The notes under the pieces are model-generated. The model was not told the origin of the DNA and did not search any database. It saw only the letters and a program-made list of their open reading frames with translations. A stretch of DNA of 64,000 nucleotides from Escherichia coli (lineage in GTDB: Bacteria; Pseudomonadota; Gammaproteobacteria; Enterobacterales; Enterobacteriaceae). The stretch is taken from assembly GCF_011045215.1 (NCBI RefSeq), contig NZ_CP049201.1; one strand, given 5' to 3'. Below are positions 28,028 to 62,699 of the stretch, piece by piece; within the stretch, counting starts at the first letter, position 1, and the number at the start of each line of letters is the position of its first letter. The position numbers and the translations under genes are program-made.

Positions 28028-28072
28028 AATATGAACTTTAACTTTTAGTCATTTTATAAAGAGGACATTTTC

Positions 28073-28579: not shown

Positions 28580-28603
28580 TACCCTTTATGCCATGTCCTT
28601 ATT

Positions 28604-28630
28604 GACCCCGTATATTACGGGGTCGTTTTT
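28604..28630. terminator. Terminator after yciE
   Basis: GACCCCGTA-TATTA-CGGGGTC hairpin followed by GTTTTT. Confidence 0.6.
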
Positions 28631-28638
28631 GTGCGGAA

Positions 28639-28764
28639 TTAAAAACGATATCCTGCTGAGAACATAAACACCCACGGATCGAGGCGTACGCTATCGTGTT
28701 GCTGTGCACCGCCCAGCTTATAATTGGCGGTGGTATCGATATCCATGTACCAGACTGACATGTT
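28639..28764 (-). pseudogene. ompW: 3' fragment of ompW (last 41 codons only)
   Basis: Minus-strand reading MSVWYMDIDTTANYKLGGAQQHDSVRLDPWVFMFSAGYRF-stop matches recalled OmpW C-terminus; in-frame stop and unrelated sequence immediately upstream. Confidence 0.8.
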
Positions 28765-28948
28765 TTAAAAAATGAAATAAGACATTGTATCTGAAAGAAA
28801 AAACAGGATTTTGAGGCGCTTTTTTATACCGTTTCTCCGTGTTTTTAACTGCCTGATTTTATTGAAATCTTTTTTAGTTTTGCAGAAAGGATTTTTTGCT
28901 CGATCGTTTTAATTTTATACATTCCTGATAACGGAAATTTTTTTGCCG

Positions 28949-29061
28949 TTGACAGTTTTTGTTCTCCGGGGCTATATTCCTCACACAACCGCAAAATCGG
29001 TTGTCGGGATTGGCGTCCCGGATGTTTACGGAGCGATATAAGACGCGCCCGCGTCTTTTTT
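28949..29061 (+). ncRNA. Candidate small RNA: sigma70-like promoter, about 75-nt structured transcript, intrinsic terminator
   Basis: TTGACA 28949-28954, 18-bp spacer, TATATT 28973-28978; two internal hairpins (CAACCG..CGGTTG, CGGGA..TCCCG); terminator AGACGCG-CCC-GCGTCT + TTTTT at 29041-29061. Confidence 0.3.
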
Positions 29062-42339: not shown

Positions 42340-42348
42340 CAAAAGAGA
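42340..42348. repeat. Left copy of 9-bp direct repeat CAAAAGAGA (putative att core)
   Basis: Identical 9-mer at 53493-53501; both copies sit in the same reading frame of the split gene. Confidence 0.5.
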
Positions 42349-42760
42349 AAGCAAACAAACAAGATAATAAGTTGAATTTAAAGGAATAAAAAAGGCATCA
42401 TTTTTGCTTTTGGTACAAATTCTAGTCCGTATAAACGCGGAAAAATCCGCTAAATTAAGATAAAAAAGATGCTTAGATAGTTACTATGTTTAGCTTCATG
42501 GCTACGGGGAGTAAGTTTGCTCTTTGCTTAATCTCGGTTATGGAAATCCCCATATCGGCATCATGCCCACCAGCGTGACGCATTTTTTTTAATTTCGCGG
42601 GTATAAAAATTTGACGAGGCGGGCGGTCCCATAAGCAATGGGGTGTAGGGATTCCGATCCCCCTGGGGGGGGTATTAAACACCCACCCTATTTAAATACC
42701 GTCTTTTTTGTCACTGTGTGTCACTGGTTGTCACTCTCCGTCACGGTATGCCACCATAAG

Positions 42761-43075
42761 TTAACGTCGTAACCGCTCCGGCTTCTTCCAGTGGTAAGTA
42801 ATTTTTTCTTTCTCCTGGTACATCTGCACGCGGCGACGGTATGACAACATCTCCAGAACTCTGGTGCGTATATTGCGCATATCCACGCCGTTAAGCTCAA
42901 TACCGTCACGGCGCATCACCTCAGCCACCACACGCGCGTAATTTTCGGCTATCACGCTGTCCGGCTGCGTGGCCTCCTGTTTGCCTGCTGGTGGTCTGAT
43001 TCCGGCAGCACGGCGAATCATTTTGAGCATTTCGGCTTCGGTCATTGTCATGGCCTCCGTGGTGATGGAAAACAA
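42761..43075 (-). CDS. Hypothetical protein downstream of element terS
   Basis: 104-aa ORF, no recognised motif; start uncertain (Met at 43075, 43051 or 43045). Confidence 0.4.
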   Translation of the reverse strand: MFSITTEAMTMTEAEMLKMIRRAAGIRPPAGKQEATQPDSVIAENYARVVAEVMRRDGIELNGVDMRNIRTRVLEMLSYRRRVQMYQEKEKITYHWKKPERLRR

Positions 43076-43310
43076 TGCCGTAATTGTGGCGGGTCCTTCC
43101 TGGAAAATGAAACACCGGGGGTGGCCATACGCGCAATTCTTAACTGTTTATGAAAATTTTTCGGGAAAAGTCAGATCCGTTCTTCTTCTCTGTAACTCAT
43201 TGTTTAATGGTAAAATCATCAAAAAAAGAAAGGATCTGGCAGTGGTCATTCTGGGCCCAAAATGACGTTATCAGATCCTTTCTCAGTTTTGTTCAATAAT
43301 TGCGCGGTTG

Positions 43311-43895
43311 TCACTCAGCTCTCTGTTGCCGTAACTTCTCCGGCACGTTTCCGGTTGTTTCCATCAGATAATCTTCCAGAATGCGGGGCAGGTTATCGGC
43401 AGTTTTAGCGCACGCATTACAGGCGCGTGCTGTTTCCCTCCTCAGGCCATCGATCATTGCCGGAGTCATCGCGGGAAACTGCCTTTGCATCGTAAGGGGC
43501 AAGCTATTCATGATGGTTGAAATCTGTTGCGCCAGTTTAGACAGTGCATACATACAAAAGCCGGTATCTATAACCTCTCCTGTCTCCCTGGCGTTCTTCA
43601 GTTCCTGCCCGTCAGCCTGTGCTTTAGTGAGACGGTATCGTTCGTACTCTGTTGTGCCTGGCTGTAAATCTGATTCACCAACGGCACGTAAATCATCAAG
43701 CTCACTGCGGAGTTTTTCTTTTTCGATCTCCTTCTCCCTCTGTACATACCATTCGATCACCTGTGAAGAGTCGAAAGTCACCTCCATACCTTTTCCGCCA
43801 CCAGATACATGGGGGAGCCCTTGCATCTGCCAACGTTCAATTGTGCGCGGATCAACACCGAAAATCTCTGCCAGTCTCTTTTTGTTAACATTCAT
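43311..43895 (-). CDS. Terminase small subunit, lambda Nu1-like (element copy)
   Basis: N-terminus MNVNKKRLAEIFGVDPRTIERWQMQGLPHVSGGGKGMEV resembles recalled lambda Nu1 winged HTH; C-terminal half similar to the prophage TerS at 62051..62560. Confidence 0.8.
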   Translation of the reverse strand: MNVNKKRLAEIFGVDPRTIERWQMQGLPHVSGGGKGMEVTFDSSQVIEWYVQREKEIEKEKLRSELDDLRAVGESDLQPGTTEYERYRLTKAQADGQELKNARETGEVIDTGFCMYALSKLAQQISTIMNSLPLTMQRQFPAMTPAMIDGLRRETARACNACAKTADNLPRILEDYLMETTGNVPEKLRQQRAE

Positions 43896-44039
43896 TTATC
43901 AAATCCTCATCAAAAACCACCTCCGACATGAAACGCCTGAAAAACGGGATTTTCCGGCGTTATGGTGTCGTATGTTTATTATAGTTAATTTAAATAAAAA
44001 CATAATGTTACATGCAAGAAGTACCGACATGCTTTTTCC

Positions 44040-44115
44040 CTGAAAAATTTTCATAAATAGTGAAAATCTGCGCGTCTGCCGCCCCGCGGTGTTTCTGATT
44101 CTGGAAAGGACCCGT
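44040..44115. other. Lambda-like cos site of the element
   Basis: GAAAAATTTTCATAAATAG ... GCGCGTCTGCCGCCCCGCGG ... GGAAAGGACCCG; reverse complement resembles the lambda cos junction (CGCTATTTATGAAAATTTTCC, GGGCGGCGACCT, GGGTCCTTTCC); about 185 bp upstream of terS. Confidence 0.6.
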
Positions 44116-44194
44116 GAAAATTGGGGCGATCACCACCGTTCCGGATACAAAAAAAATCGCGAGACCTTGCCAGCCTCGCGAACGTTCATTTCAG

Positions 44195-44620
44195 TTACTT
44201 AACAGACAGCAACAGCTTTTCATCTTCGGTCAGTCCGGCGTTGCCATCACCGGCTGCTGGCCCAACACATTTCGGGCTGTGCTTTTCCATGTACGCTTCA
44301 AACAGAAAAGCCGTTTTCTTTTCCTGCATCATTGCCTGGGCATCCACGGCAGCCAGTAACGTTTGTGCATAGGTTACTGTCATTACTTCAGAACCACACT
44401 CAATCAGCTTACTGGTGAACTCAGGGTATTTTGATGCCAGCGGTAACGCCTTGATACCCTCTATGCGCTGTTTATCACTCTCAGCCTTTGCAGTAAGCAC
44501 CGTTCGGGCTTCTGTCAGTGATGCGCCATTATTTGCGAGATTTTCCGCAAGCGTCGGGTATTTCTGCGCCTCAGGCAGTGCCATGATCAATGCTCTGGTT
44601 GAATTTGCTTTCTCAGTCAT
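44195..44620 (-). CDS. Hypothetical head-module protein (possible scaffold)
   Basis: 141-aa ORF between decoration-like gene and cos; no recognised motif. Confidence 0.45.
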   Translation of the reverse strand: MTEKANSTRALIMALPEAQKYPTLAENLANNGASLTEARTVLTAKAESDKQRIEGIKALPLASKYPEFTSKLIECGSEVMTVTYAQTLLAAVDAQAMMQEKKTAFLFEAYMEKHSPKCVGPAAGDGNAGLTEDEKLLLSVK

Positions 44621-44634
44621 AAATCACCACAAAA

Positions 44635-44964
44635 TTATTGCCCTAAAGGCTGCACGGAAATACCGGAACCAACAAAAGACGACACTTTTTTCTCGAACGT
44701 GTCCGCTGTATCAGGCCAGTTAATTTCATCGATATTAAAAACCCCGCACTTATAAACCTGTGCGCGGTTTTTTGTGGCCGTGTTAATGTCCGATATGGTC
44801 AGATACACCGCCTTACCGGGTGTACCGTCCCACTCAACCATCAGGCCCGCGCCGTTCTGCATCAGCGGAGTTCTCGCTTTAATTTCTCCGGCACTGGCAA
44901 AACAGGCCAGCGTGCTGACCAGTTCCTGCGTGCCGGAAAGGAATTGCGTGTAAGGTGTTGGCAT
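44635..44964 (-). CDS. Head decoration protein homologue (lambda gpD-like, element copy)
   Basis: RTPLM..VEWDGTPGKAV...YKCGVF..INWPD...FVGSGISV parallels the gpD pattern TPLM..VAWDG...YKSGTF...WP..AF.GTAIS. Confidence 0.65.
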   Translation of the reverse strand: MPTPYTQFLSGTQELVSTLACFASAGEIKARTPLMQNGAGLMVEWDGTPGKAVYLTISDINTATKNRAQVYKCGVFNIDEINWPDTADTFEKKVSSFVGSGISVQPLGQ

Positions 44965-44974
44965 ACGATCCCCT

Positions 44975-46030
44975 TTATTTCACTTCGACGGTAACAAAGC
45001 GACCAATATCCACGGGTACTGGCTGCGGGGCGCTGTGCGTCTGCACGTATTCAATCGCCGGATCGCCCGGTACGATATAATTTTTCGGGTAGTACATCCC
45101 CTCAGAAAATCCCTCGCGTGCCGCGTCCTGATCCATGATGGCACCATAAGCAACAAGGCCTTTATTTTCGGTATTGCCGAAAACCATCATGTTTTGTTTC
45201 AGGAAATATTGCTGCTGCCCGTTTTCGTCGTCATAACGACCGGAATAAACCACGATCGCCACATCACCGAGATACCCCTTGAAGCTGACAACGCCGCCCA
45301 AATCTTTTAGCGCAAGTTCAAGTGACGAGTTTGAACCGCGACGCGTGTCCATTAGTTCGCGGAATCGACGGAACGAGCGCAAAATACGCCAGGCTTCGCC
45401 ACCCATGACGATAATATTTACCGTACCTTCGGAAAAATCAGCGTAAGCCTCAATGTCGCTTATCGGATCAAACGTTTCGGCATCCTGTTTTGACCATTCT
45501 TTCCCGCCAGCCTGCGTAATATGATTGGTTTCGGGTAATCCCCAGTCAATTTCATAACGCTCAATGCCTTCGCCCTCAATAACGTTACGGCCTGTTGTGA
45601 TGGCATTGACCGCCAGCCATTCAACACGCGCTTTGATGGCAGCAAGCTGTTTTTTCTGGCTGTCGTGAACCATTTTTACGCGGCGTAGTGCCGGGGAAGA
45701 CTGACCATTGCCGATCTGTTCTCCAGGCATGCGCATGATTGTTTTGGTGGGATCAATAACGTGTTTGGGCTTCATATAACCCGGCGTGAACGTGTTCGTT
45801 GTGAAACCTTTGTCACGCATAACCTGGCTGCCTGACATTGGAGAACAAAACGGACTCATGACCACGTTTTCAATATCCAGCGTATCAAGTGCAATATCTC
45901 TGGTGCTGAAAGTAGCGACGTTCGGAAAGAACAACGTAGTAAAGAGTGGATTAAATTTAAATTCCGGCACATCTTCGCGCCCGATATTTTTCAGTAGCGT
46001 TGGTGTGCTTACCAGTTGCGGCGCTGTCAT
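44975..46030 (-). CDS. Major capsid protein homologue (lambda gpE-like, element copy)
   Basis: 351-aa ORF; TPGYMKPKH, NHITQAGGKEWSKQDAETFDP, KELMDTRRGSNSSLELALKDLGGVVSFKGY align with the prophage gpE at 55439..56467. Confidence 0.8.
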   Translation of the reverse strand: MTAPQLVSTPTLLKNIGREDVPEFKFNPLFTTLFFPNVATFSTRDIALDTLDIENVVMSPFCSPMSGSQVMRDKGFTTNTFTPGYMKPKHVIDPTKTIMRMPGEQIGNGQSSPALRRVKMVHDSQKKQLAAIKARVEWLAVNAITTGRNVIEGEGIERYEIDWGLPETNHITQAGGKEWSKQDAETFDPISDIEAYADFSEGTVNIIVMGGEAWRILRSFRRFRELMDTRRGSNSSLELALKDLGGVVSFKGYLGDVAIVVYSGRYDDENGQQQYFLKQNMMVFGNTENKGLVAYGAIMDQDAAREGFSEGMYYPKNYIVPGDPAIEYVQTHSAPQPVPVDIGRFVTVEVK

Positions 46031-46266
46031 TACTCACCCCCATGAGGCTGATTCATACCAAGCGCAGCGCGTAAATGGCTGCGTACCATCCAGCCGACTG
46101 ACGGCTTCACCAGGCACAACGGATCAAGGCCGATTTTTTTTCCTGCCTCTGCGTTCTCCTCAAAGCGCGCATTAAGTGCGGCGATAATATCGGGGCTGAT
46201 GTACACGGATACACCGCCCGGCTTCTGTGTTCCCATAAATGAGATTCCTCTTTGACTAAAAAACAA
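46030..46266 (-). CDS. Hypothetical protein upstream of capsid homologue
   Basis: 78-aa ORF, start uncertain; no recognised motif. Confidence 0.35.
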   Translation of the reverse strand: MFFSQRGISFMGTQKPGGVSVYISPDIIAALNARFEENAEAGKKIGLDPLCLVKPSVGWMVRSHLRAALGMNQPHGGE

Positions 46267-46457
46267 ACATAACGAAAAGTCATGTCATGATTTTAATTAT
46301 CGTTGCACTTTTTGCAATATAATTGACTATTGTTGCGAATAATGAAATCATTATGTCGTGGTTTTAATCCTTGTACCACAGAGTTGTTTAGCATTAATCA
46401 CGTTAGCGGCGTGAAATCCCCCGGAACCTCATCCCGGGGGATTTTTTTGCGCACAAA

Positions 46458-46482
46458 AAAGCCGGGAAAAATCCCGGCTTCT
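46458..46482 (-). terminator. Terminator after element ssb
   Basis: AGCCGGGA..TCCCGGCT hairpin followed by TTTTTTGTG on the minus strand, just after ssb stop. Confidence 0.5.
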
Positions 46483-46494
46483 GTCACTCGTTGC

Positions 46495-46917
46495 TTAAAA
46501 CGGTATTTCATCCCCGTACGGATCATCATTTCCCGCCTGTTGTTTTGCTCTGCTCAGTGCATCAGTAGCCTGCCCCTGTTGGCCTTTTTTGCCGCCCGGT
46601 CGCGCCGTTCTGGCACTGATTACACTGTCTGCGATAACCTGCCAGCTCTGCCGCGTTTCGCCGTTCTGGCCTGTCCACTGGCTTACCTGCATGTTACCCG
46701 CCACGCTCACCAGTTCGCCTTTGCGGTGTTTTGCCAGTGCGTCGGCCTGTCTGCCAAACGCCAGGACGGATAACCACATCGTCGCCGTTCCGTCATCTGC
46801 CTGGCTGCACGGCAGGGGAACCGCCATACTCGCCATCGCCATTTGTGTTCCCTTGCTGGTGGTCTTTAACTGCGGGTCAGCCACCAGCCGCCCGTAAGCT
46901 GCTATCTGTGCTGTCAT
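46495..46917 (-). CDS. Single-stranded DNA-binding protein (SSB-like) with acidic C-terminal tip
   Basis: 140-aa ORF; C-terminus ...NDDPYGDEIPF resembles the SSB tail ...DFDDDIPF. Confidence 0.7.
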   Translation of the reverse strand: MTAQIAAYGRLVADPQLKTTSKGTQMAMASMAVPLPCSQADDGTATMWLSVLAFGRQADALAKHRKGELVSVAGNMQVSQWTGQNGETRQSWQVIADSVISARTARPGGKKGQQGQATDALSRAKQQAGNDDPYGDEIPF

Positions 46918-47165
46918 GCTGTCTGCTCTCCGGTTTTAACGTTGATGGTTGTCACCTGTTCCGCTTCGGCAATCTCCCGCTCTGTCAGCGTGGCAAAGTT
47001 TGCCGCCGCTGTGGTCATGAATGCGCTTATCAGTTCGGGATGTGCTTTTGCGTATCCTTCTCCGGCATGGCGGTCTATTGTTCTGATTGCCACCTTTAAG
47101 GCGTGCTCTGTCATGTCTAACGCTTTATATTTTGGCGCTGTCTTATCTCTGGTTTTTTTGGTCAT
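46914..47165 (-). CDS. Hypothetical protein
   Basis: 83-aa ORF, ATGA overlap with ssb start. Confidence 0.45.
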   Translation of the reverse strand: MTKKTRDKTAPKYKALDMTEHALKVAIRTIDRHAGEGYAKAHPELISAFMTTAAANFATLTEREIAEAEQVTTINVKTGEQTA

Positions 47166-47370
47166 TTCTCACTATTCCCCACTTTTTCGCCTCACTTTTT
47201 AAGCTCCCAACATGATTTCCAACCTTGTTTTTTTGTGATTCTAATATGTTGTTTTTCAATGTGTTTTTTATTCCTCACTTTTGAGCCTATATACAGGTTG
47301 AAAAGTGAGGGGCGCGGTTGCTTTTTGTTCAGTTTCTGCTATCCCCTCACTTTTGTGCCTCACTTTTTAC
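47165..47370. repeat. Iteron array with AT-rich core (candidate replication origin of the element)
   Basis: CTCACTTTT at 47191, 47274, 47346, 47361 and inverted AAAAGTGAGG at 47301, flanking an AT-rich stretch (47225-47275), directly downstream of the helicase gene. Confidence 0.55.
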
Positions 47371-48782
47371 AGTGGGCGCACATCATCACCGTCAATAGTG
47401 ATAACGCCGTCTCTTTCCAGCTTGTACAGCCAGCGCCGAAAGTTTTTCATCTCATACCCCAGCTTTTTCATATCATCACGCAATAACGGGATAGTGCATT
47501 TATCGCCGCGCTGTGTGCGTGAACGGATACAGCCCCATAGCGCGGCGTGATTCTCCGTCTTGTTTCCGGCCTCCTCAATGCGCTCCAGTTCAACAGGTGG
47601 GCGCGGCTTATCCACTACCACCAGCGACGTGATTAACTCCTTGTCAGCGTCGATAAAAAGCTCCACCACGCGTAAATCGTATGCGGCCTCTTTCAGTTCC
47701 TCTGCGTCCTTCATTTTGGTGCAGGAGATAACCAGGGCTTCACTGTCTGCACCTTCCCGGCGAATACGGTATTCAGCGTCCAGAGATGCACGAAATGCAC
47801 TGGAACCACGCGCCCCCTTTGTTTCATCCTTGCCGGAATGGTGAACCACCAGTACCGTGGCCCCTGTGCGTCGTTTCAGTTCGTCACATCCACGGATAAA
47901 CGCCCCCATATCCCGCGCGTCATTTTCATCATTACCGCCAAAACACCGCGCCAGCGTATCCAGAATAATCATGCGTACCGGTTTACCCGTTTCCCTTTCA
48001 ACCTGGCGGGAAGCGATGACCATTTCATCAATATCAAACTGTGCTGCCGGAAAAATCGGGCGGTTTACCAGGTACAGATTTTTCACCCGTTCATCATTAA
48101 CGATTTCCCATGCTTTGATACGACGAGGGACACCAATGCCACCTTCACCGACGACATACATCACCGAACCATGCGCCACCCTGCGGCCTCCCCAGTGGCG
48201 ACCCGTGGCAACATGACACGCCCAGGAACACGCGAGGAATGATTTATAGGAACCGCTCGCGCCGTATGTGCTGCACAACGAATTAGCCGGAATCACGCCC
48301 TTAACGACATAATCAAGCTGTGTGTCGTACCCTGCAGATCCAATACTCATTGGTAGCGTGGTTTTTCGCTGGTCGTTTTTTTCTTCCTCCGGTATCTCTC
48401 CGGACCGTCTTTTCTGGCGCTCTCGTTCCAGATATTCGCGCCACCCCTCCCGCTTCTGGCTGTGCATTCCCTCAGGGTAATAATTCGCATCCCGTACACC
48501 TGCCGCTGCCAGCTTTTGCCCGATGGCATTAATATTTGACGGCTTGATGTGGCCTGCCTTGTACAGCCGGACACAATAGCGACCATCGTCGATAATTTTC
48601 AGGTCAGCCAGTTCGTCAAGATGGCTGTCTCCAAGCCATACAGGCGGAACATTGTCGCCAGCAAGTCGCCCGTCCTGCTCCTGCCATTGTTTCGCGTGCG
48701 CCCAGGCATCACTACCCGCAAAAATAATGACTTCGGTCATTTTGTCGTGCGGCTGTTTTTTTAAGTTCGGTGCCAGTTTCAT
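47367..48782 (-). CDS. Replication protein, RepA/DnaB-like P-loop helicase
   Basis: 471-aa ORF with Walker A GASGSYKS and RecA-like core; C-terminal winged-helix-like region. Confidence 0.7.
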   Translation of the reverse strand: MKLAPNLKKQPHDKMTEVIIFAGSDAWAHAKQWQEQDGRLAGDNVPPVWLGDSHLDELADLKIIDDGRYCVRLYKAGHIKPSNINAIGQKLAAAGVRDANYYPEGMHSQKREGWREYLERERQKRRSGEIPEEEKNDQRKTTLPMSIGSAGYDTQLDYVVKGVIPANSLCSTYGASGSYKSFLACSWACHVATGRHWGGRRVAHGSVMYVVGEGGIGVPRRIKAWEIVNDERVKNLYLVNRPIFPAAQFDIDEMVIASRQVERETGKPVRMIILDTLARCFGGNDENDARDMGAFIRGCDELKRRTGATVLVVHHSGKDETKGARGSSAFRASLDAEYRIRREGADSEALVISCTKMKDAEELKEAAYDLRVVELFIDADKELITSLVVVDKPRPPVELERIEEAGNKTENHAALWGCIRSRTQRGDKCTIPLLRDDMKKLGYEMKNFRRWLYKLERDGVITIDGDDVRPL

Positions 48783-49078
48783 TTTTTACCCCTGAATGCG
48801 TTAATCATGTTTTTCATTTTCTGAATGTTCGCCCGTGCCTTTGCGTTGCTGGTGGGCTGTTTGCATGGCGTGGCCTGTATCAGTGAAAAATCACGCCGGA
48901 ACTGATAAACAGGCATCACGCAGTCATAGCCGTACCCATCACGGCGGTAAGTAACGCACCGTCCCGCCACGCTTTTAATCGTTACCGTGCCGCCGTAGTT
49001 ATCCCGGAAAATATCGCCGGGGCGGATTTCAGGCCGAGCGGGGCCGCTGGCAGTAAAGCCAGAAATTTTCTGTTTCAT
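48779..49078 (-). CDS. Hypothetical protein
   Basis: 99-aa ORF, ATGA overlap with helicase start. Confidence 0.4.
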   Translation of the reverse strand: MKQKISGFTASGPARPEIRPGDIFRDNYGGTVTIKSVAGRCVTYRRDGYGYDCVMPVYQFRRDFSLIQATPCKQPTSNAKARANIQKMKNMINAFRGKK

Positions 49079-49286
49079 GGTTTTTATTCCTCTGCGCGGG
49101 TCTTGTTGTGTATTTCCATAACCGCGTTTAATTCATCAATAACCGGGGTTAACAGAGTGCTGAAAGCAGAAAATAAATCCCCCCCCCTGTTCGGCATGAA
49201 CTTCGGTTAATTTAATTAATACCGCTTTCATTTCCAGTGCCCGGTTTAATGCATTCTCAGAATGAATAAGAACATCGAAAGGGATT

Positions 49287-49520
49287 TTATCCATGGCTTA
49301 CATCCTCCGGGAATTTTCTTCTGTAACGCGCCTCTGCAACATATTCCGCATAGTCCGACGCAATATTGAGAATCTCCACACCCTCTGACCTGTAGCCACT
49401 GGTACTGATAAGAAAAAATGCGGCTTTCATCATGTCGGCAACGCATAACAACGCATCGCCTGTATGTTCCGGTGCGCCATCAAATTCCTGTTTCAGGGCA
49501 TTAAAACGATCATCACGCAT
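49287..49520 (-). CDS. Hypothetical protein (may be the 3' part of one gene frameshifted at a C9 tract)
   Basis: 77-aa ORF; begins inside poly-C/G tract 49523-49531. Confidence 0.3.
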   Translation of the reverse strand: MRDDRFNALKQEFDGAPEHTGDALLCVADMMKAAFFLISTSGYRSEGVEILNIASDYAEYVAEARYRRKFPEDVSHG

Positions 49521-49753
49521 AACCCCCCCCCATTTTCACAATCAGTAATCAGGATGGCTTTAGCCTCATTCAGTGCCATATCAGCACTAAATTGCATAAC
49601 AGCCAGTGAGTGAGGAACGAAATCCCCGGCATATTCTGTTTCGCTGGTGGCGTGCTTATGTGCCCTGTCCGCGATAACAGAAATATCAATCAGCGCGTGC
49701 ATCAGCGTTTTGATGGCTTCGGCGGCTGCGTCCTGACGGGTGTTATTGCACAT
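49493..49753 (-). CDS. Hypothetical protein (may be the 5' part of one gene frameshifted at a C9 tract)
   Basis: 86-aa ORF ending just after poly-C/G tract. Confidence 0.3.
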   Translation of the reverse strand: MCNNTRQDAAAEAIKTLMHALIDISVIADRAHKHATSETEYAGDFVPHSLAVMQFSADMALNEAKAILITDCENGGGLCVMIVLMP

Positions 49754-49949
49754 GGCGCACCTCCTGACGAATACGGGCGGCGAATACCATCACGCAGCCA
49801 TCAGGAGATTGCTGACGCGCTTCCTGTTCGTTGGTGGCCTCAATGGTAATCACGCGCGGTTGTGCCGTGCTCAGGGCGATAAAACGCCAGATGTATTTAT
49901 TCAGGTTGTGCGAGTCCCGCCCTTGCGGGTGTGTGGTATGATTTAACAT
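49743..49949 (-). CDS. Hypothetical small protein, divergent from the RHH gene
   Basis: Start taken at MLNHTTHPQ (ATG 49949, RBS GAGGTA); long upstream extension in ORF track rejected. Confidence 0.4.
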   Translation of the reverse strand: MLNHTTHPQGRDSHNLNKYIWRFIALSTAQPRVITIEATNEQEARQQSPDGCVMVFAARIRQEVRHVQ

Positions 49950-50043
49950 AGCTACCTCGATAATCTTGCTATCGTTGGTGGTTAGACGCCCTGCATGTGT
50001 ACCACCACTGCGGGGCGTTGCGTTTTTTGATGTGCACGTGTTA

Positions 50044-50088
50044 AGGTGTACACCTAACGAACCAAAACATAACGCCATAGGTGTACAC
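50044..50088. promoter_or_regulatory. Two palindromic operator-like sites GTGTACAC in a divergent promoter region
   Basis: AGGTGTACAC at 50044-50053 and 50079-50088, second abutting the RHH start codon. Confidence 0.5.
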
Positions 50089-50283
50089 ATGTCAACAGTT
50101 ATTAAGCGCGATAAAAAACAAAAAGGCACAGGAAAGGCCCCACCATTCCATATGCGTATAGTCCCTGAATTGAAGGAGCAGTTTGATAACGAAGCCAGTA
50201 ACGATGGAGTAAGTCTTGCCAACTGGCTTAAAGAGTTAGGGCGCAAAGAACTGCTACGGCGCGGAATTGAACCAAAGGGATAA
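50089..50283 (+). CDS. Ribbon-helix-helix (Arc/CopG-like) DNA-binding protein
   Basis: ORF track 49966..50283; start taken at MSTVIKRDKKQKG (ATG 50089); APPFHMRIVPELKEQFDNEASNDGVSLANWLKELGRK fits the Arc-type RHH pattern. Confidence 0.6.
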   Translation: MSTVIKRDKKQKGTGKAPPFHMRIVPELKEQFDNEASNDGVSLANWLKELGRKELLRRGIEPKG

Positions 50284-50340
50284 CTATCACTAATGTCGCA
50301 ACCAGAGGAGTTGCGACTCCGAAGATTACATAGGAAATTA

Positions 50341-50823
50341 ATGATTATGGGATTCGTCATTTTCATTGCGATCGTAATTTTATCCATTTACGTTCTTACC
50401 AAATTATTTATTTCAGAAAATTCACACGACAAAATTAGAGCCGAGGCATCCAGAAGAATTGCACAAGAAGAGGCCGAACGGGCTAAGTTGTATGAAGAGA
50501 GAAAGGAATCATCTGATAATCCTGTTAATAAACAAAAACGAATAACAACACACGAAGATCATTTTTATATGGATATTCATGGTGGTCACAAATATATATG
50601 TGTTGATGCTAAGTTAGTTTTTGAATATGCAAATTTAAAACACAACTATTTTCTTCACGCCTCTCACTATTTCCCTGAGTTAGAGTATGTTTATGGAAAA
50701 AACGAACATGGGAAAATAGTTAGAGTAGATTTGTACGATAAAAAAATTCAAGCTATTAACCCCGATACTGGCGAAAAAATACCTGGTGTGAGACGTTATC
50801 TACGACAGCACAAGATAAAATAG
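50341..50823 (+). CDS. AT-rich membrane-anchored protein of unknown function
   Basis: ORF track 50293..50823; start taken at MIMGFVIFIAIVILSIYVL (ATG 50341, RBS AGGAAA); single N-terminal TM helix; markedly lower GC than neighbours. Confidence 0.5.
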   Translation: MIMGFVIFIAIVILSIYVLTKLFISENSHDKIRAEASRRIAQEEAERAKLYEERKESSDNPVNKQKRITTHEDHFYMDIHGGHKYICVDAKLVFEYANLKHNYFLHASHYFPELEYVYGKNEHGKIVRVDLYDKKIQAINPDTGEKIPGVRRYLRQHKIK

Positions 50824-51238
50824 CCCACCGGAATTTTTTTCCGGTTACGCTTTGCCCACCAGCCGCAAATGTGGCATTGTTGGCTATGCTCATGCGTTGG
50901 GGATAACGCGCAATTAGTGTTGAAGGGCCACCGTAGCGGGTGGCCTTTGTTTTGCCTGTTATCCGGCAATTGTGGCGCTTCGCCACACGGTTGATATAAT
51001 CCTCCTGCACAGATTCATTTTTTGCGCAGCAGGTTAATTGTTCGCAAGGGCGCTCCGGCAACTGGGCGCTTTTTGTTTTTACCCACCAGCACAATAAAAA
51101 TCTTCATTTTCCATTTTTGCAAAATTTCATGCTTTCCGGACGACTGGCCATATGTCATTTTTTAGCAGAAGATTTTGCCTTGCTGGTGGGTAGCTTCCCG
51201 GTTAACACGATGTACCGTATAATCAGCACCGCACGCGG

Positions 51239-51820
51239 TTACTGAATACGCTCACCAAAGTAAAACTCAGGCTGATATTCACGTATCAGCCTTTTTTCTT
51301 CTTCCTCCAGCTCACGCTTTTTGCGCTTACATGCCTGTAGTTCCCTCCCCTTCTCGCTGGCACTTATCTGGTATTGCTCTTTGCGACGGGAAAAATCCTG
51401 TAATGCGCCCCACGGGATACCATAAGCCCCCGTTTTTCTGATACCCGGTATCACATTTCTGAATACCCAGTTACTGAAACGATGGGCGAACGTGCCAGGA
51501 GTAGCAGCTTTTCGACTTCTGGCAATCAGCTTGTAAAAACCAGATTCAGAAACGACGCTATGATTTGGATTTCCGCGAATACCGTAAGTTAAAGTTACGG
51601 TATTACTTTCATCATCATCCAGAGCTTGCAACGCCATGCGTGAATTAGTCAGTTCCAGCGCAGCGCAGACATCCTTTGCAACAAACCACGGATCGCCGTT
51701 CAGATACACCACGCGAACGTTCACACTATCAAAGCGCAGAACGACCAGATCACGAATATCACAGAATTTTTTCACTGGACGTGCGTCACCCTTGCCAGTC
51801 ACGGCAATATTTTTATTCAT
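51239..51820 (-). CDS. Bro-N domain protein (antirepressor-like)
   Basis: DIRDLVVLRFDSVNVRVVYLNGDPWFVAKDVCAALEL...GFYKLI..S....A..F..WV fits Bro-N. Confidence 0.7.
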   Translation of the reverse strand: MNKNIAVTGKGDARPVKKFCDIRDLVVLRFDSVNVRVVYLNGDPWFVAKDVCAALELTNSRMALQALDDDESNTVTLTYGIRGNPNHSVVSESGFYKLIARSRKAATPGTFAHRFSNWVFRNVIPGIRKTGAYGIPWGALQDFSRRKEQYQISASEKGRELQACKRKKRELEEEEKRLIREYQPEFYFGERIQ

Positions 51821-51870
51821 CGCTTTTTACCTCACATACAAAAAACCCCGCATTGCGCGGGGTATATCAA

Positions 51871-52080
51871 TCATTGACGATATTCATTAGCTTGTTTTCG
51901 TTGTCTTTCCAGCCACGATGCAACATCATCACGATGCCATGCGTTGCGTCGCCCAATCTTAAAGGGGCGTGGAAATTTATTTTTTTCATCATTCATGAAA
52001 GCGTAAAATGCACTCATTGCACCGTAGCGAAGCTCTGCCATCACGTCTTTGGTAAATAGAATATTGCCGTTAGTGCTCAT
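51871..52080 (-). CDS. AlpA-family regulator / excisionase-like protein
   Basis: 69-aa ORF immediately downstream of integrase, HTH-like core. Confidence 0.65.
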   Translation of the reverse strand: MSTNGNILFTKDVMAELRYGAMSAFYAFMNDEKNKFPRPFKIGRRNAWHRDDVASWLERQRKQANEYRQ

Positions 52081-52086
52081 ATTGCC

Positions 52087-53319
52087 TCACATATTCACTA
52101 CTTTTAGCCCCTGATGACCACCAGAACGACGGATAATTCCCTTTCTGGCATCATCAACAAAATCACCAATCCATTGCATCATGATCTTACGTTGCTCAAA
52201 ATATTTTGAGCGATTATAAATATCACGAATAGCATCGCCGCTTTTATGGGCTAATGCTGCCTCAATAACATCTGGGTTAAACCCTTCTTCGTTGAGTAAC
52301 GTACTCCACATAGCCCGGAATCCGTGGGCAGTTGCAATACCATAAAATTGTCCATCTTTGAAACACTTATGACGCAACACGCTTGATATAGCTTTCCCCG
52401 GATTCTTTGGAGAAAAAAATATATAGCTACCACATTTTATTTTATTCATTTCATTTAAAATATCCACGGCTTGCCGTGAAAGCGGAACTACGTGTTCACG
52501 TCCACACTTCATTCTTTCAGGGGGAATTGTCCAGATACAATTTTCTAAATCAATTTCCTCCCATTTTGCCTCCCTTGCTTCACATGGTCGTACCATAGTG
52601 AAAATCTGGAACAAAAGAGAGCATCTTATAGAGATATTACTTGTAGTATCCCACCAGTTCAAAAATTCTGATAACAGTTCAACTGGTAATGCCTTTAATG
52701 GGGTATGTTTTTTTGTTGCAAATGCATTTCTTATTGTTGATAGCGGGTTATTTTTAATTACTCCAGAGTTAACACAGTAATTCATTATTTCATTAATTTT
52801 TGAAATAATTTTATCCAATACAGAATTACGATCAGAAAATTGATTAAGCAATGGTATGACCACAGGCGCGGTCATATCATGTATGTACACATTTCCAAAT
52901 ACAGGGATTATATGTCTGTTCAATAACTCTTCTATTGTCTGTAAAGTCGACAGTCGCAAATCACCTTTTTTCTTAAAATTAAACCATTCAATTGCAATAG
53001 CACCAAACGTCTGTAAGTGCTTTCTTTTAGCCTCGAGTCGTTTTTCTGCCCGGTATGATAACGGATCTATATCCCGTGCCAACAATCTGCGCAGATTATC
53101 GCGTTCTTCTCTGGCTTCAACCAGCGTGAAATCGGGGTATCGCCCTATAGTGTATGTTTGCCGCTTCTTCGTAAAAGGTTGTACATAACGAAAACGCCAC
53201 GATTTACTACCGGCTTTTGACACATAAAGCAAAAGCCCAAACCCATCATATAGAGCGTAATCTTTCTCTCGTGGCCTGGCGCTTTTTACCTCTGATGCAG
53301 TAAGAGGCTTCACCGACAT
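52087..53319 (-). CDS. Tyrosine recombinase, P4-type integrase
   Basis: ORF track 52087..53418; start taken at MSVKPLTASEVKSARPREKDYALYDGFGLLLYVSKAGSKSWRFRY (ATG 53319); C-terminal catalytic region with HGFR and Y. Confidence 0.85.
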   Translation of the reverse strand: MSVKPLTASEVKSARPREKDYALYDGFGLLLYVSKAGSKSWRFRYVQPFTKKRQTYTIGRYPDFTLVEAREERDNLRRLLARDIDPLSYRAEKRLEAKRKHLQTFGAIAIEWFNFKKKGDLRLSTLQTIEELLNRHIIPVFGNVYIHDMTAPVVIPLLNQFSDRNSVLDKIISKINEIMNYCVNSGVIKNNPLSTIRNAFATKKHTPLKALPVELLSEFLNWWDTTSNISIRCSLLFQIFTMVRPCEAREAKWEEIDLENCIWTIPPERMKCGREHVVPLSRQAVDILNEMNKIKCGSYIFFSPKNPGKAISSVLRHKCFKDGQFYGIATAHGFRAMWSTLLNEEGFNPDVIEAALAHKSGDAIRDIYNRSKYFEQRKIMMQWIGDFVDDARKGIIRRSGGHQGLKVVNM

Positions 53320-53492
53320 ACAAGCACTCCAATACAAATTTTTTCTAGTCCATGCGCTGGTTCCTTTTGCCAGAATACTGGCGATAAAAAAGCGAAAAAC
53401 AAGGAACAATGCACACAATGAAAAAACCGCAACTTATTGAATAAGAAGAAAAACAAAAAGAAACGGTAACGAAAGATAATGATTGCATAGTC

Positions 53493-53501
53493 CAAAAGAG
53501 A
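53493..53501. repeat. Right copy of 9-bp direct repeat CAAAAGAGA (putative att core)
   Basis: Identical to 42340-42348; about 170 bp from the integrase start. Confidence 0.5.
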
Positions 53502-53898
53502 CACGGAAAACGATGTAGTCGTCCAGCAGTCGGTCGAAGGTATCCACCTCAGCATCAATAAAAACCGCCGGATCAACGTTATCCAGCCCGAACGTGGCTC
53601 CATCAATCCAGTCAGATAAATCCATTGCCAGACAGCGGGCAAATATCTGCGGTTTTGGCACGTTTTCCGTCTTTCCGGCCCGATCAGTCACCACAAACAG
53701 ATCGCATTTCAGCGTGACCCGTGTCTGCCCGTCGGCAAACTGAGCCTTGTCCCAGCCGGGTACATCCACAAACACGGCAGGCGTCACCAGTTGCGTCACT
53801 TTTTCCGGGTACTCATCGGCATCTTCCACCCAGGGAATTTGTTTCAGACTGTCAATCACTGCCTGATGCCAGGTTCCCATCATCAATGGTTCCATCAT
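53501..53898 (-). pseudogene. 5' fragment of the split tail-completion gene
   Basis: ORF 53434..53898 reads a coherent protein to ...DDYIVFRVSF then a hydrophobic nonsense tail (GLCNHYLSLPFLFVFLLIQ) encoded by element sequence; frame at the junction matches the fragment at 42179..42339. Confidence 0.55.
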
Positions 53899-55438: not shown

Positions 55439-56467
55439 TTATTTCACCTGAACCACCACAAACGCGTCCGGATCCGGCAACACCATCAACGGCGCAGACT
55501 GCGTCATGGTATATTCGCACCCCGGGTCCCCCACCTCTAACCAGTGTTTCGGATAACGAATTGCAGAGGTGATCCCTTCACTCAGCGCCTGGTTATCCTG
55601 GATTGCGCCATAACAACGGACACCCTCCACCTGAGTGTTTCCAAGAATCAGTGTGCCTTCCGGCAGATAACGCTGCTCATCCCCGTTTTCATCAACATAC
55701 GTTGTTTTCGCCACCATGATGGCCAGATCACCGTAATAACCTTTAAAAGAAACCACGGAACCCAGATCTTTCAGCGCGGTTTCCAGTTCAGATTTTGAGC
55801 CACGGCGGGTATCCAGTTTTTCACGAAACAGCTTAAAACCGTTCAGCATACGCCAGACAGTACCGTCCATAATCGCAATATTGATGGTACCGGAAGCAAA
55901 ATCGCAGTACGCATCCAGATCATGCGTCGGATCAAAGGTGTCAGCATTCTGTTTTGACCATTCGCGTCCCCCTGCCTGCGTTATGTTATTGGCGGCAGAA
56001 CGTCCAAAATCCACTTCCACCGTCTCAAACTGTTCACCGCTCATGGTGTACTTACCCTGCAGAACAGCGCTGACCGCCTGCATTTCTTCCACCTGCACAA
56101 TCGCCTGCTCTTCCTGTTTCAGGTTATCAGTCAGAATACGCAGGCGACGGTAGGCCGGGTCATTAAGACGGGCCGGATCTTCCCCCGGAAGACGCTCCAC
56201 CGCCTGCTGATAATCCAGCCGGTGTTTTGGTTTAACATAGCCGGGGCGTAACACGCGGGTTTCACCACCACGACTGCGCAGTACCTTACCTGACACAACC
56301 GGAGACACATATGCCGCAACCGGTGTTTTTCCGGTGATTTTATCCAGCATCACTTCCTGAGTATGGAAAGTGACCGTACGACGAAAAAACAGCTCCAGAA
56401 ACAGCGCACGGAATTTCACTTTCTGCTCGGTGTAGCCGAGCAACTGACGCGTGGTAAATAACCCCAT
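55439..56467 (-). CDS. Major capsid protein (lambda gpE-like)
   Basis: ORF track 55439..56506; start taken at MGLFTTRQLLG (ATG 56467, RBS GGAAAG); long stretches match recalled lambda E (PIVSG.V.RSRGG, PGYVKPKH, VEEMQAVSAVL.GKYTM.GE.F, KLDTRRGS.SELETA.KDLG). Confidence 0.9.
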   Translation of the reverse strand: MGLFTTRQLLGYTEQKVKFRALFLELFFRRTVTFHTQEVMLDKITGKTPVAAYVSPVVSGKVLRSRGGETRVLRPGYVKPKHRLDYQQAVERLPGEDPARLNDPAYRRLRILTDNLKQEEQAIVQVEEMQAVSAVLQGKYTMSGEQFETVEVDFGRSAANNITQAGGREWSKQNADTFDPTHDLDAYCDFASGTINIAIMDGTVWRMLNGFKLFREKLDTRRGSKSELETALKDLGSVVSFKGYYGDLAIMVAKTTYVDENGDEQRYLPEGTLILGNTQVEGVRCYGAIQDNQALSEGITSAIRYPKHWLEVGDPGCEYTMTQSAPLMVLPDPDAFVVVQVK

Positions 56468-56537
56468 AATTGACTTTCCTTTAAAAACACAAACGAACCG
56501 CATCACGACCCGTTTTTTTCAGTTAATCACTTCACCA

Positions 56538-56873
56538 TCAGGCGTGGCTGATGGCACTTCCCACAAACGCGTTGGCTTTTTTCACCGCATCCACCGAATC
56601 CGGCCAGACCAGCGATTCGGTGGCAAACGTACCGCTTTTGTAGTACGTCAGTGTGGGCTCGGTCCCGGCCAGCGCCAGTGCCAGTACCCCCACAGCCGTT
56701 CCGGCTTTCTGACCATCCCATGCCACCAGTTTTCCGCTGGCGTCATCCAGCATCAGTGGCGTCAGTGAAGGCGTGGCAACACTGATACCGCTGGTACCTG
56801 TTGCGGTATACACCGGATCGCTTCCGGCAAAAATGCGCCCGTCCGCACGCTTTTCTGTGGTGGTTTTAATCAT
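56538..56873 (-). CDS. Head decoration protein (lambda gpD-like)
   Basis: ORF track 56538..56903; start taken at MIKTTTEKRADG (ATG 56873); TPLMLDDASGKLVAWDG...YYKSGTF...WPD matches recalled lambda D. Confidence 0.85.
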   Translation of the reverse strand: MIKTTTEKRADGRIFAGSDPVYTATGTSGISVATPSLTPLMLDDASGKLVAWDGQKAGTAVGVLALALAGTEPTLTYYKSGTFATESLVWPDSVDAVKKANAFVGSAISHA

Positions 56874-56913
56874 TTTCTCAGTCTCCTGATTTATCTGAAT
56901 CACGGATCCCCGC

Positions 56914-58395
56914 TTACGGCATACTCATCAGCAGTTCTTCTTCCCCGTTCCCGGCAGTTCCGCCACCGGAAACGGCACTGGCGGCATGCTGTGCCATGAA
57001 GCGCTCAAAAAGTGTTACCTGTGACGGTTGCGATACTGATGGCGCAGCTGCCAGCAGTGTTTTCGCCTGGTCCACTGTCATTCCCGGCTGTTCAGCCAGC
57101 GCCTGTGCCAGTTTTTCGCGTCCTTTTGCTTCCGGAAGTGCCATTATCTGCTCGCCGGTACTTGCCGCACCGGTTGCCGGTGCCGCTGCCAGTAACATTT
57201 TCGCCTGTTCCACCGTCATTCCCGGCTGTTCAGCCAGCGTCCGTGCCAGTTGTTCACGCCCTTTTGCTTCCGGAAGTGCCACAATCTGATCGCCAGTACT
57301 GTCAGTACCGGCAACCGGTGCCGCTGCCAGTAACGTTTTCGCCTGCTCAACTGACATTCCCTGCTGACCTGCCAGCATCTGCGCCAGTTTTTCGCGTCCT
57401 TTCGCCTCCTGACAATTCAGGATCCCCATCACGCGCTGATTTTCCTGGGACACCGCTTCAGCAACGGTGAGATTTTTTGTTGTCATCGTATTCTCCTGTG
57501 TAACAGAGTCGTTCAGAGCAGAAACCATTACATCAACGGCATCTGCAGCATTAATCAGTTGATCAGCCAGGCCTGTATCAATGCCTGCCTGACCGTCATA
57601 AACGGCAGCCTCGGTATTCATCACCACCTCTGAACTCAGCCCCGTATAAAGTGCCACCTTGTCGACAAACATCCGGCGGGCCTCATCAATACGGCGCTGA
57701 AAATCCGCACGCACACCTGTCGGCAACGCCTGAATACTGTTGCCGTCAACCTTGTGCTGCCCGGAGTAAATCAGCGTGATATCCACCCCTTCCTGTGCCA
57801 GTTGTTTCTCATAACTGATGTGCGCCATCATCACACCAATCGAACCAATTTTTGCCGTCTGCGTGACCAGCCGACGCGTACAGGCTGCCGCCAGCAACAT
57901 GGCGGCTGAACAGGCCATGTCATTACACAGCGCCCACACGGGCTTCTGTTCCCGCAGACGGTAAATCATGTCAGCACAGTCAAACGCCCCGGCAGCCTGA
58001 CCGCCAGGACTGTCGATATCCAGCAAAATACCGCGCACATCCGGATCATTCACCGCCAGCTGAAGACGGGCGGTAAGACCGTCATAGCCTGTCATGCCAG
58101 AGTAAGGCCTCAGGGTACCCATTTTATGTACCAGCGTGCCGCTCACCGGCAGAATGGCGATGCCATTTTTCACCTGATAGCATTTTTCAGGACGCCGGCC
58201 ACCAGACATATAGTCCGCCACCGCCAGTTGCATACCGTCGGCATCAAGCTGAACATCCAGTTGCGGAACGGAAAGACTGCCCGCCCCCATCTCCTTACCC
58301 AGCGCGCAAAAGAAAACCCGCGCATAGGCGGGTTCCAGTAAAAGCGGTTCATTAAATGCCATGGCGGCAATATGCGATAAATTACGACGCATCAC
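56914..58395 (-). CDS. Head maturation protease / scaffold (lambda gpC-like, S49 peptidase) with triplicated C-terminal repeat
   Basis: N-terminus ...NLSHIAAMAFNEPLLLEPAYARVFFCAL matches recalled lambda C; C-terminal region has three tandem copies of an ~46-aa unit. Confidence 0.85.
   Translation of the reverse strand: MMRRNLSHIAAMAFNEPLLLEPAYARVFFCALGKEMGAGSLSVPQLDVQLDADGMQLAVADYMSGGRRPEKCYQVKNGIAILPVSGTLVHKMGTLRPYSGMTGYDGLTARLQLAVNDPDVRGILLDIDSPGGQAAGAFDCADMIYRLREQKPVWALCNDMACSAAMLLAAACTRRLVTQTAKIGSIGVMMAHISYEKQLAQEGVDITLIYSGQHKVDGNSIQALPTGVRADFQRRIDEARRMFVDKVALYTGLSSEVVMNTEAAVYDGQAGIDTGLADQLINAADAVDVMVSALNDSVTQENTMTTKNLTVAEAVSQENQRVMGILNCQEAKGREKLAQMLAGQQGMSVEQAKTLLAAAPVAGTDSTGDQIVALPEAKGREQLARTLAEQPGMTVEQAKMLLAAAPATGAASTGEQIMALPEAKGREKLAQALAEQPGMTVDQAKTLLAAAPSVSQPSQVTLFERFMAQHAASAVSGGGTAGNGEEELLMSMP
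57040..57406. repeat. Tandem repeat, about 138 bp x 2.7, inside the gpC-like gene
   Basis: Protein units EAKGRE(K/Q)LA..LA.Q.GM(S/T)V(E/D)QAK.LLAAAP...STG.QI.ALP repeated; DNA motif ...GTGCCAGTTTTTCGCG..TTTTGCTTCCGGAAGTGCCA recurs at about 138-bp period. Confidence 0.7.
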
Positions 58396-62560: not shown

Positions 62561-62699
62561 ACACCCTCTTTAGCTGTTCACTTTACACTCAACTCCGTTT
62601 TTGCCGCTATTTTCCCACAAACTGGTCGGACTTCCGGTTTTCTTGATAACTAAAAACAATATAATCAATTGGTTAGATAATTAAAAAACCGGAAGTGGA

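Follow-up and report, generated by a model that had tools for sequence, protein, structure and literature searches.

The DNA analysed here is a 64,000-nucleotide stretch (the window) of the Escherichia coli contig NZ_CP049201.1 (assembly GCF_011045215.1), in which an 11.15-kb element at positions 42340..53501 interrupts a late gene of a prophage. There is very little doubt in our view that this element is an EcCICFT073-type phage-inducible chromosomal island (PICI) of Gram-negative bacteria. A preliminary description of the sequence had pointed to relatives of the major capsid (gpE) and decoration (gpD) proteins of the helper phage within it, and had proposed that the capsid paralogue might redirect capsid size. 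The interval flagged there holds four co-oriented open reading frames (ORFs) on the minus strand, encoding a small protein, a capsid protein, a decoration protein and a scaffold-like protein. These genes, their flanking signals and their counterparts in the embedding prophage are as follows.

46290..46317, minus strand: promoter-like site upstream of the capsid module, from a consensus scan and alone not above chance
46030..46236, minus strand: small conserved ORF, 68 amino acids from its ATG, whose stop overlaps the start of the capsid gene (translational coupling)
44975..46030, minus strand: satellite major capsid protein of the lambda gpE family, 351 amino acids, by sequence and model comparison
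44635..44964, minus strand: satellite head-decoration protein of the gpD family, 109 amino acids, by sequence comparison
44195..44620, minus strand: protease-less scaffold-like protein, 141 amino acids
44157..44181, minus strand: intrinsic-terminator-like hairpin with a 10-bp stem and T8, closing the four-gene capsid module
55439..56506, minus strand: prophage gpE-like capsid protein
56538..56903, minus strand: prophage gpD-like decoration protein
56914..58395, minus strand: prophage S49 protease/scaffold protein (the three prophage genes carry their RefSeq names in strains C5 and SA53-3)

Between the satellite capsid protein and its gpE-like counterpart in the prophage, 46% of the residues are identical in an alignment of 327 amino acids with two one-residue gaps (E-value 1e-104). 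Every motif quoted in the preliminary description falls within this alignment, and the full-length gpE-like paralogy that it claimed holds, well beyond what chance would give. The protein is 65% identical to the EcCICFT073 capsid protein and 46% identical to lambda E, and it matches the PHROG major head protein family (2e-97), PDB entry 3BQW (4e-152) and the lambda gpE structure (3e-89). The 3BQW entry bears the title "putative capsid protein of prophage (E. coli CFT073)"; the protein in it is none other than the capsid protein of EcCICFT073. An AlphaFold model built from 32 sequences has a predicted local distance difference test (pLDDT) score of 82.6 and template modelling (TM) scores of 0.88 to 3BQW and 0.82–0.87 to lambda gpE, an outcome that bears out the structural kinship for which a prediction had been proposed as a check. 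The model displays a complete HK97 fold with no domain-level insertions or deletions relative to the prophage E protein. Among close relatives, the ratio of nonsynonymous to synonymous substitution rates (dN/dS) is 0.07–0.21 for the capsid gene as against 0.14–0.25 for the gene encoding the RepA-type helicase, and the decoration and scaffold-like genes also lie below 1. Judged by these ratios, the capsid gene is under purifying selection; together with the complete fold and the conserved length of the protein, this marks the gene as functional.

The other members of the module are also recognizable as head proteins. The decoration protein shares 36% identity over 73 amino acids with the prophage gpD-like protein (E-value 3e-12), belongs to PHROG 49 ("head decoration", 5e-18), matches lambda gpD structures (1e-8) and is 48% identical to the EcCICFT073 decoration protein, all of which agrees with the gpD assignment made at the outset. 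The third paralogue, which had gone unnoticed, is the 141-amino-acid protein. It resembles residues 365-490 of the 493-amino-acid prophage S49 protease/scaffold protein (34% identity, E-value 2e-10), with both copies of an internal repeat included. Further matches are to the C-terminal end of PHROG 53 ("head maturation protease", 1e-8) and to a 137-amino-acid ORF at the same position in EcCICFT073 (30%). A Pfam search of this protein returned no match. We set aside a direct match to the lambda scaffold protein Nu3, which was seen only at the level of motifs (E-value of about 0.1); the scaffold label therefore derives from the C terminus of the prophage protease and from PHROG 53.

The small ORF that opens the module is 63% identical to the ORF directly upstream of the EcCICFT073 capsid gene and belongs to PHROG 3255, a family with no functional name; its Pfam and PADLOC searches were empty. 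ORFs of 70-75 amino acids occupy the same position in two further PICIs (loci L009 and L011), and the upstream region and ribosome-binding site of the small ORF are conserved with CFT073. At the other end of the module, CFT073 carries a different hairpin and T-run at the same position, just before its cos site. The gene order of capsid, decoration and scaffold is the reverse of the phage order and is conserved across genera. By its sequence and layout, the module is a shell kit of three parts that makes up a transcription unit by itself.

The element that carries this kit is sharply bounded. Its ends lie in a prophage late gene as listed below.

53502..53898, minus strand: N-terminal part of the interrupted late gene, which encodes 183 amino acids when restored; PHROG 1072, no functional name
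53493..53501, minus strand: attL core TCTCTTTTG, on the integrase side, within the interrupted prophage late gene
42340..42348, minus strand: attR core TCTCTTTTG; next to it comes the C-terminal part of the interrupted late gene

The 9-bp attachment (att) core is common to both flanks, and joining the flanks there restores an ORF of 183 amino acids, as seen in their translation. A 10-bp repeat, GATAAAAAAG, at 42459 and 53383 was dropped as the att site once translation of the flanks gave the true 9-bp core. The joined, empty site is present without interruption in 76 of 5,426 complete E. coli genomes, with 99.9% identity in strain C5, where the gene lies between a Neck1/tail-completion gene and the baseplate V gene. 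The insertion is in frame, and the element runs on the same strand as the prophage late operon. A tRNA scan of the whole window found none, so the integration site is not a tRNA gene. The same element occupies the same prophage site in strain SA53-3, and in TUM1881 it is found with a different integrase at a chromosomal site between yejO and tRNA-Pro.

In its organization the element displays the features by which PICIs are recognized, with an integrase at one end, alpA next to it, main genes all on the minus strand, a replication module of its own, helper-like cos sites and a discrete, att-flanked extent of ~11 kb. PICI-type induction, packaging and helper-mediated transfer are predicted for it from its family membership. 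Scans of all its ORFs against PHROG and NCBIfam, together with tblastn searches, recovered no portal, protease domain or large terminase (TerL), as the preliminary description had stated, and PHROG scans of the ORFs and tblastn with the prophage head proteins likewise found no connector, tail or lysis genes. When the prophage TerS (small terminase), TerL, W, portal, protease, D, E, FI, FII and neck proteins were compared by tblastn with the 11.15-kb element, only TerS, E, D and the C-terminal residues 365-470 of the protease matched.

The satellite capsid protein belongs to a lineage of its own. A comparison with 50,697 phage records gave no capsid protein above 47% identity. A large protein search returned graded identities of 99, 77, 70-60 and 57-48%, followed by lambda-E-like phage proteins at ~45%. 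Identity within the clade is 48-77%, and capsid length stays at 343-352 amino acids across Escherichia, Salmonella, Edwardsiella, Serratia, Lelliottia and Cedecea. All five clade members sampled for context sit in islands that run from integrase, AlpA and primase genes to the major capsid and decoration genes, and the nine family members sampled for size all measure 10.0-11.3 kb. The sampled islands lie at a chromosomal site and inside capsid gene E in E. coli, inside a portal gene in Edwardsiella, at fis in Serratia and Lelliottia, and inside P2-like prophages in Salmonella. On these sequence comparisons, the clade is restricted to satellites, absent from the phage records searched, and old, with no recent capture; the satellite-specific grouping that had been suggested as a check is what we find.

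At 28 positions the satellite clade and phage E proteins are fixed for different residues, with clusters at 46-76, 128-159 and 329-339. In the model these correspond to the loop that leads from the N-terminal segment into the long helix, to the long helix (113-146) with the strands that follow it, and to the C-terminal strands. We take them to be the E-loop, the spine helix and the P-domain, respectively, from general knowledge of the HK97 fold. These three regions make contacts between subunits, and in lambda they also form the site for gpD.

Several relatives add observations of their own. In two Salmonella PICIs (L007 and L008; GCA_005980655.1 and GCA_009525675.1), a decoration gene accompanies an E-type capsid gene (50% identical). 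Both islands lie within P2-like prophages, which have a capsid protein of the gpN type; one adjoins tail fibre and tube genes, the other gpO/gpN/gpM and a portal gene. In Lelliottia sp. SL45, the PICI at fis encodes a capsid protein, a decoration protein and then a full S49 protease (L011, 10409..11752) of 447 amino acids, 54% identical to the protease of the window prophage. The presence of a full protease at the scaffold position suggests that the 141-amino-acid protein is a remnant of a protease-scaffold gene. By its gene content, the Lelliottia PICI resembles a stage on the way between classical and capsid-forming PICIs, with head genes being either lost or gained. A further clade member, P0035 (463 amino acids, on a single 3.2-kb Logan contig), has capsid (PF03864) and decoration (PF02924) domains fused in one ORF; the fusion may be natural or a sequencing artefact.

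Downstream of the capsid module lies a packaging cassette, which, like the scaffold-like paralogue, goes beyond the preliminary description.

44007..44122, minus strand: cos-like copy 1, upstream of terS; 81% identical over 80 bp to the prophage cos region at ~62704..62783
43311..43895, minus strand: Nu1-type small terminase (TerS), 194 amino acids; PHROG 57, 8e-63
43082..43196, plus strand: cos-like copy 2, downstream of terS and inverted relative to copy 1; 75% over 116 bp

Along the whole protein, the satellite TerS shares 52% identity with lambda Nu1; with the prophage TerS it shares 38%, mostly in the C-terminal half. It matches the N-terminal domain of lambda Nu1 (6HN7_B) at 6e-37 as against 2e-3 for RppC; with a far better match to Nu1 and a full-length protein, an Rpp assignment was rejected. 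In the cos-proximal regions (43895..44122 and 62560..62830), cos-like copy 1 agrees with the left end of lambda at 77 of 98 positions, as against 64 of 100 for the embedding prophage. Function as cos is predicted for both copies, and two cos sites are known for EcCICFT073 (PMC6092414, PMC6739421). The terS cassette (43082..44122) is thus bracketed by two inverted cos-like repeats of ~116 bp. The whole 1.03-kb cassette lies in the opposite orientation in TUM1881 (L002, 8468..9499) with both flanks collinear, so it has been inverted within the family; we found no mention of such an inversion in the published PICI accounts consulted. The prophage TerL is 64% identical to lambda gpA. The satellite packaging module looks more lambda-like than the embedding prophage does. 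Residence in this prophage is in itself no proof that it acts as the helper, and the similarities indicate that the natural helper may be a lambda-type phage rather than, or besides, the prophage in which the element resides.

Experiments on the EcCICFT073 orthologues constrain what the module could do. Fillol-Salom et al. (2018; PMC6092414) named c1499 capsid and c1500 head-decoration and asked whether they play a role like that of Ccm, the capsid homologue of SaPIbov5. All DNA packaged from EcCICFT073 with lambda was phage-sized, and induction of CFT073 produced no band of PICI-monomer size; deletion of c1499 or c1500 did not restore lambda plating and left transfer by the resident prophages unchanged (PMC6092414). 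In a 2019 study, only c1503 (RppA) blocked lambda on expression, and its deletion fully restored plaques (PMC6739421). The review by Dokland (2019; PMC6893505) mentions a possible Ccm-like role and normal-sized EcCICFT073 capsids. Our literature search for a later-demonstrated function of the E-type capsid genes of PICIs found none in the library searched. The preliminary description had presented a satellite capsid paralogue as a new lambda-type route to size redirection. That idea does not stand as new, having been published and tested in EcCICFT073 in 2018 with no support (PMC6092414), and resizing by a capsid homologue has a precedent in Ccm (PMC6893505).

The presence of a full HK97-fold capsid protein, a decoration partner and a scaffold fragment under strong constraint points to a functional shell set and not to a lone poison subunit or a relic. 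The full protease of L011 and the clustering of the clade-specific substitutions also speak for a set. The EcCICFT073 experiments, for their part, speak against small heads and against the module being essential. The reading that we favour, at a probability of roughly 40% for the whole, is an auxiliary supply of helper-size shells. The capsid, decoration and scaffold-like proteins would form a mutually adapted set that assembles on the helper portal or mixes with helper subunits, giving heads of helper size. The helper protease would mature the shell, and a gpA-like helper TerL, steered to the PICI cos by the PICI Nu1-type TerS, would fill the head. Helper neck and tail proteins would then complete the particle, with four 11.15-kb copies (44.6 kb) in each head. 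The module would serve as an auxiliary or redundant source of capsid that lessens dependence on expression of the helper capsid genes and is dispensable in the laboratory; it would not act to resize heads.

Several points weigh against this auxiliary supply. Neither a c1499::cat island nor deletion of c1499/c1500 lowered transfer with the resident helper, lambda or phi80 (PMC6092414), and the module genes expressed singly had no effect on lambda, phi80 or HK97 (PMC6739421). No experiment has demonstrated a PICI-encoded E-type capsid protein in particles. The scaffold assignment depends on 30-34% identity to a protease C terminus, with an empty Pfam search and a weak Nu3 match. The embedding prophage is not proven to be the helper, and the PICI cos and TerS appear closer to lambda. 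Some clade members also reside in P2-like prophages with another capsid family. Should such a prophage serve as the helper, it offers no paralogue with which the satellite capsid protein could co-assemble, and mixing with helper subunits is unlikely there.

A different division of labour, which we regard as doubtful, is that of a "half capsid-forming" satellite. Such a satellite would make a shell of its own from its scaffold fragment, E-type capsid protein and D-type decoration protein, possibly one small enough for a single 11-kb genome; the helper would provide only portal, protease, TerL, connectors and tail, and the satellite TerS and cos would direct packaging. If so, the element would represent an evolutionary and mechanistic intermediate between classical PICIs and capsid-forming PICIs (cf-PICIs), and the negative results with EcCICFT073 would reflect redundancy with helper capsids, not lack of function.

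Size redirection in the strict sense, in which the satellite proteins and a cognate helper build small, one-genome (11-kb) heads that exclude the helper genome, as Ccm does, is unlikely. A lambda-size genome is about four times as long as the element, the nine sampled family members all measure 10.0-11.3 kb, SaPIbov5 Ccm and the small-headed PmCI172 offer precedents, and our own rough geometric estimate places 11 kb nearer to the capacity of a T=3 than of a T=4 shell of lambda type (T, triangulation number). Redirection is conceivable here because the element differs from the tested prototype in having TerS in place of Rpp, a contractile-tailed helper and 35% of its capsid residues. Against it stand the phage-sized EcCICFT073 DNA obtained with lambda, the missing monomer band and the transfer retained on deletion (PMC6092414), as well as a capsid protein free of insertions or deletions relative to T=7 shell proteins. 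Contrary to the preliminary argument that a satellite of 11 kb needs smaller capsids, four copies fit a lambda-size head, so that cos packaging requires no small head. Element size does not help to choose between the two, as nearly any monomer length can be packaged from cos into a lambda-size head as some multiple.

Interference, with the satellite capsid-family proteins acting as dominant-negative subunits against non-helper phages of the E type, is likewise improbable. PICIs commonly carry anti-phage functions, purifying selection without a transfer phenotype would fit such a role, and the clade-specific substitutions fall in regions expected to form inter-subunit contacts. The published data run the other way. 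Single module genes left plating of lambda, phi80 and HK97 unreduced, deletion of rppA alone fully restored lambda (PMC6739421), and deletion of c1499 or c1500 gave no relief (PMC6092414). A poison subunit would, moreover, need neither decoration nor scaffold partners, and PADLOC, which of the module covered only the small upstream ORF, returned nothing.

A backup copy of an interrupted helper gene, as suggested for 11capE by Tommasini et al. (PMC10111431), is very unlikely. Many helper-embedded PICIs (HE-PICIs) do interrupt capsid gene E and carry an E homologue (PMC10111431; also our loci L005 and L006). The gene interrupted in the window is not E, the satellite clade is old, and the module is carried by PICIs at tRNA-Pro, fis and the CFT073 site; with prophage E, D and protease intact and the module present in chromosomal PICIs, this idea fails as a general explanation. 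Finally, the idea that the element is what decay has left of a second full prophage, its capsid genes no longer working, could appeal to relatives with more head genes (the full S49 protease in L011; annotations of TerL or of a protease-capsid fusion in hits H19 and H24). It was rejected as almost certainly wrong, since a precise 9-bp att core, a clean empty site in 76 genomes, a discrete island of ~11 kb between host genes at tRNA-Pro in TUM1881, intact ORFs with dN/dS near 0.1 and a gene order that is conserved across genera and reversed relative to phages rule out a decayed prophage and uphold the discrete satellite of the preliminary description.

The remainder of the element follows the classical PICI plan. 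Its minus-strand gene order is int, alpA, Bro-N, accessory genes, an Icd-like gene, small genes, DUF4222, RepA helicase, SSB, the capsid module, cos, terS, cos and a last small ORF. The principal genes outside the capsid and packaging modules are listed here.

52087..53319, minus strand: tyrosine integrase, 410 amino acids; PHROG 1 (5e-67), NCBIfam PRK09692 (2e-97)
51871..52080, minus strand: AlpA-like excisionase/activator; PHROG 66, with a helix-turn-helix regulator annotated at this position in the SA53-3 and CFT073 elements
51239..51820, minus strand: Bro-N domain protein (the "Bro zone" of Gram-negative PICIs); PHROG 2593 anti-repressor (1e-82), orthologue named BRO-N in RefSeq
49966..50823, plus strand: two accessory ORFs of 105 and 176 amino acids in a low-GC patch (GC 0.41) of the variable zone
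47367..48782, minus strand: RepA-type helicase/replication initiator; PHROG 2850 (7e-251), primase/helicase families, RefSeq "helicase RepA family protein"
46495..46917, minus strand: single-stranded DNA-binding protein (SSB); PHROG 44 (1e-40)
42761..43075, minus strand: last element ORF; PHROG 1561, no functional name

The sole family match of the two accessory ORFs is weak and Arc-like, and they may be cargo or defence candidates. PADLOC gave no match for them, for the Bro-N protein or for the last element ORF. ORFs of 91-93 amino acids occupy the same last position in EcCICFT073 and at loci L004 and L005.

The embedding prophage combines lambda-type head genes with a contractile tail of the P2 type, and relatives of it have been deposited as vB_EcoM phage records. 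In E. coli C5 (L012, 1..8650), a Mu-like transposable prophage with MuA/MuB-type genes and a repressor adjoins the region just upstream of the target prophage terS; the C5 late-gene cluster may be separated from its early region, or defective. Two other strains, Z0117EC0133 (NZ_CP098183.1) and P393-F10 (NZ_CP076274.1), have an uninterrupted target site and a PICI of the EcCICFT073-type family elsewhere on the chromosome, an anecdotal co-occurrence. To the left of the prophage tail genes, positions 27000..29000 of the window are markedly low in GC (0.39-0.42).

Among known systems, EcCICFT073 is the closest. It is likewise ~11 kb long, is collinear from int to the last small ORF and has two cos sites, and its small ORF, capsid, decoration and scaffold-like proteins are 63, 65, 48 and 30% identical to those described here, with the same neighbours. 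The two differ in their integrases and att sites. EcCICFT073 has RppA, a D5-type primase and a chromosomal site, whereas the present element has a Nu1-type TerS, a RepA-type helicase and a site within a prophage; TerS-bearing E. coli PICIs are also known (PMC6092414).

Capsid genes occur in 21 of 29 reference Gram-negative PICIs, and PICIs embedded in prophage late genes have been described (Tommasini, Mageeney and Williams, 2023; PMC10111431). Eco567.11capE, an HE-PICI from that work, resembles the element in having its own capsid gene and integration, Bro, replication and late zones. The present element is embedded in a late gene in the same manner, in frame and on the same strand, in the 183-amino-acid gene beside baseplate V. 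Its PHROG-1072 target, however, is not among the lambda-cognate genes of HE-PICIs (A, B, C, E, V, T, H, L and J; PMC10111431), and its integrase lies outside the single HE-PICI integrase clade that has been published, being only 27% identical, in a judgement by identity alone, to the 11capE-type integrases of the capE- and portal-embedded islands L005 and L009. The SA53-3 element has a 99.5% identical integrase, and a Salmonella PICI that resides in a P2-like prophage has one with 58% identity (L007, 3292..4524). These identities suggest a second, independent integrase lineage aimed at the late genes of prophages with contractile tails.

A parallel is offered by Ccm of SaPIbov5, an island that is packaged by cos (Carpena et al. 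2016; PMC6893505): there, too, the satellite encodes a homologue of the helper capsid protein with the HK97 fold. The two share 23% identity; Ccm has neither decoration nor scaffold partners and has been shown to yield small isometric heads, whereas the published EcCICFT073 tests saw no change of size with E-type PICI capsid proteins. The Pasteurella island PmCI172 (PMC6092414), compared by description, is another Gram-negative PICI with a capsid homologue and a myovirus helper; it produces small heads, which may be linked to its capsid gene by analogy. P4 shares a length of 11 kb, cos packaging by the helper terminase and a head-decoration function. It encodes no capsid protein and uses Sid and Psu, whereas decoration here is of the gpD type, and none of the P4 core genes Sid, Psu, delta and alpha-primase was among the PHROG, NCBIfam and Pfam matches of the element ORFs. 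The cf-PICI EcCIEDL933 (Alqurainy et al., bioRxiv 10.1101/2022.09.08.507074) likewise has its own capsid and small terminase genes on the int/alpA/replication backbone of classical PICIs. It adds portal, protease, TerL, HNH and head-tail connector genes, none of which is found here, and takes only tails from its helper.

Set against these systems, the element constitutes no new class, as its gene set, the idea of capsid resizing and the helper-embedded lifestyle are all already published. What the present comparison adds is the shell kit in its own transcription unit, a capsid clade absent from the phage records searched, and its occurrence inside P2-like prophages of another capsid family. 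A lambda-E-type capsid lineage confined to satellites persists under purifying selection in several genera of enterobacteria; a gpD-type partner accompanies it in every case and a scaffold fragment in many. The sole knock-outs so far (c1499 and c1500), in contrast, had no phenotype.

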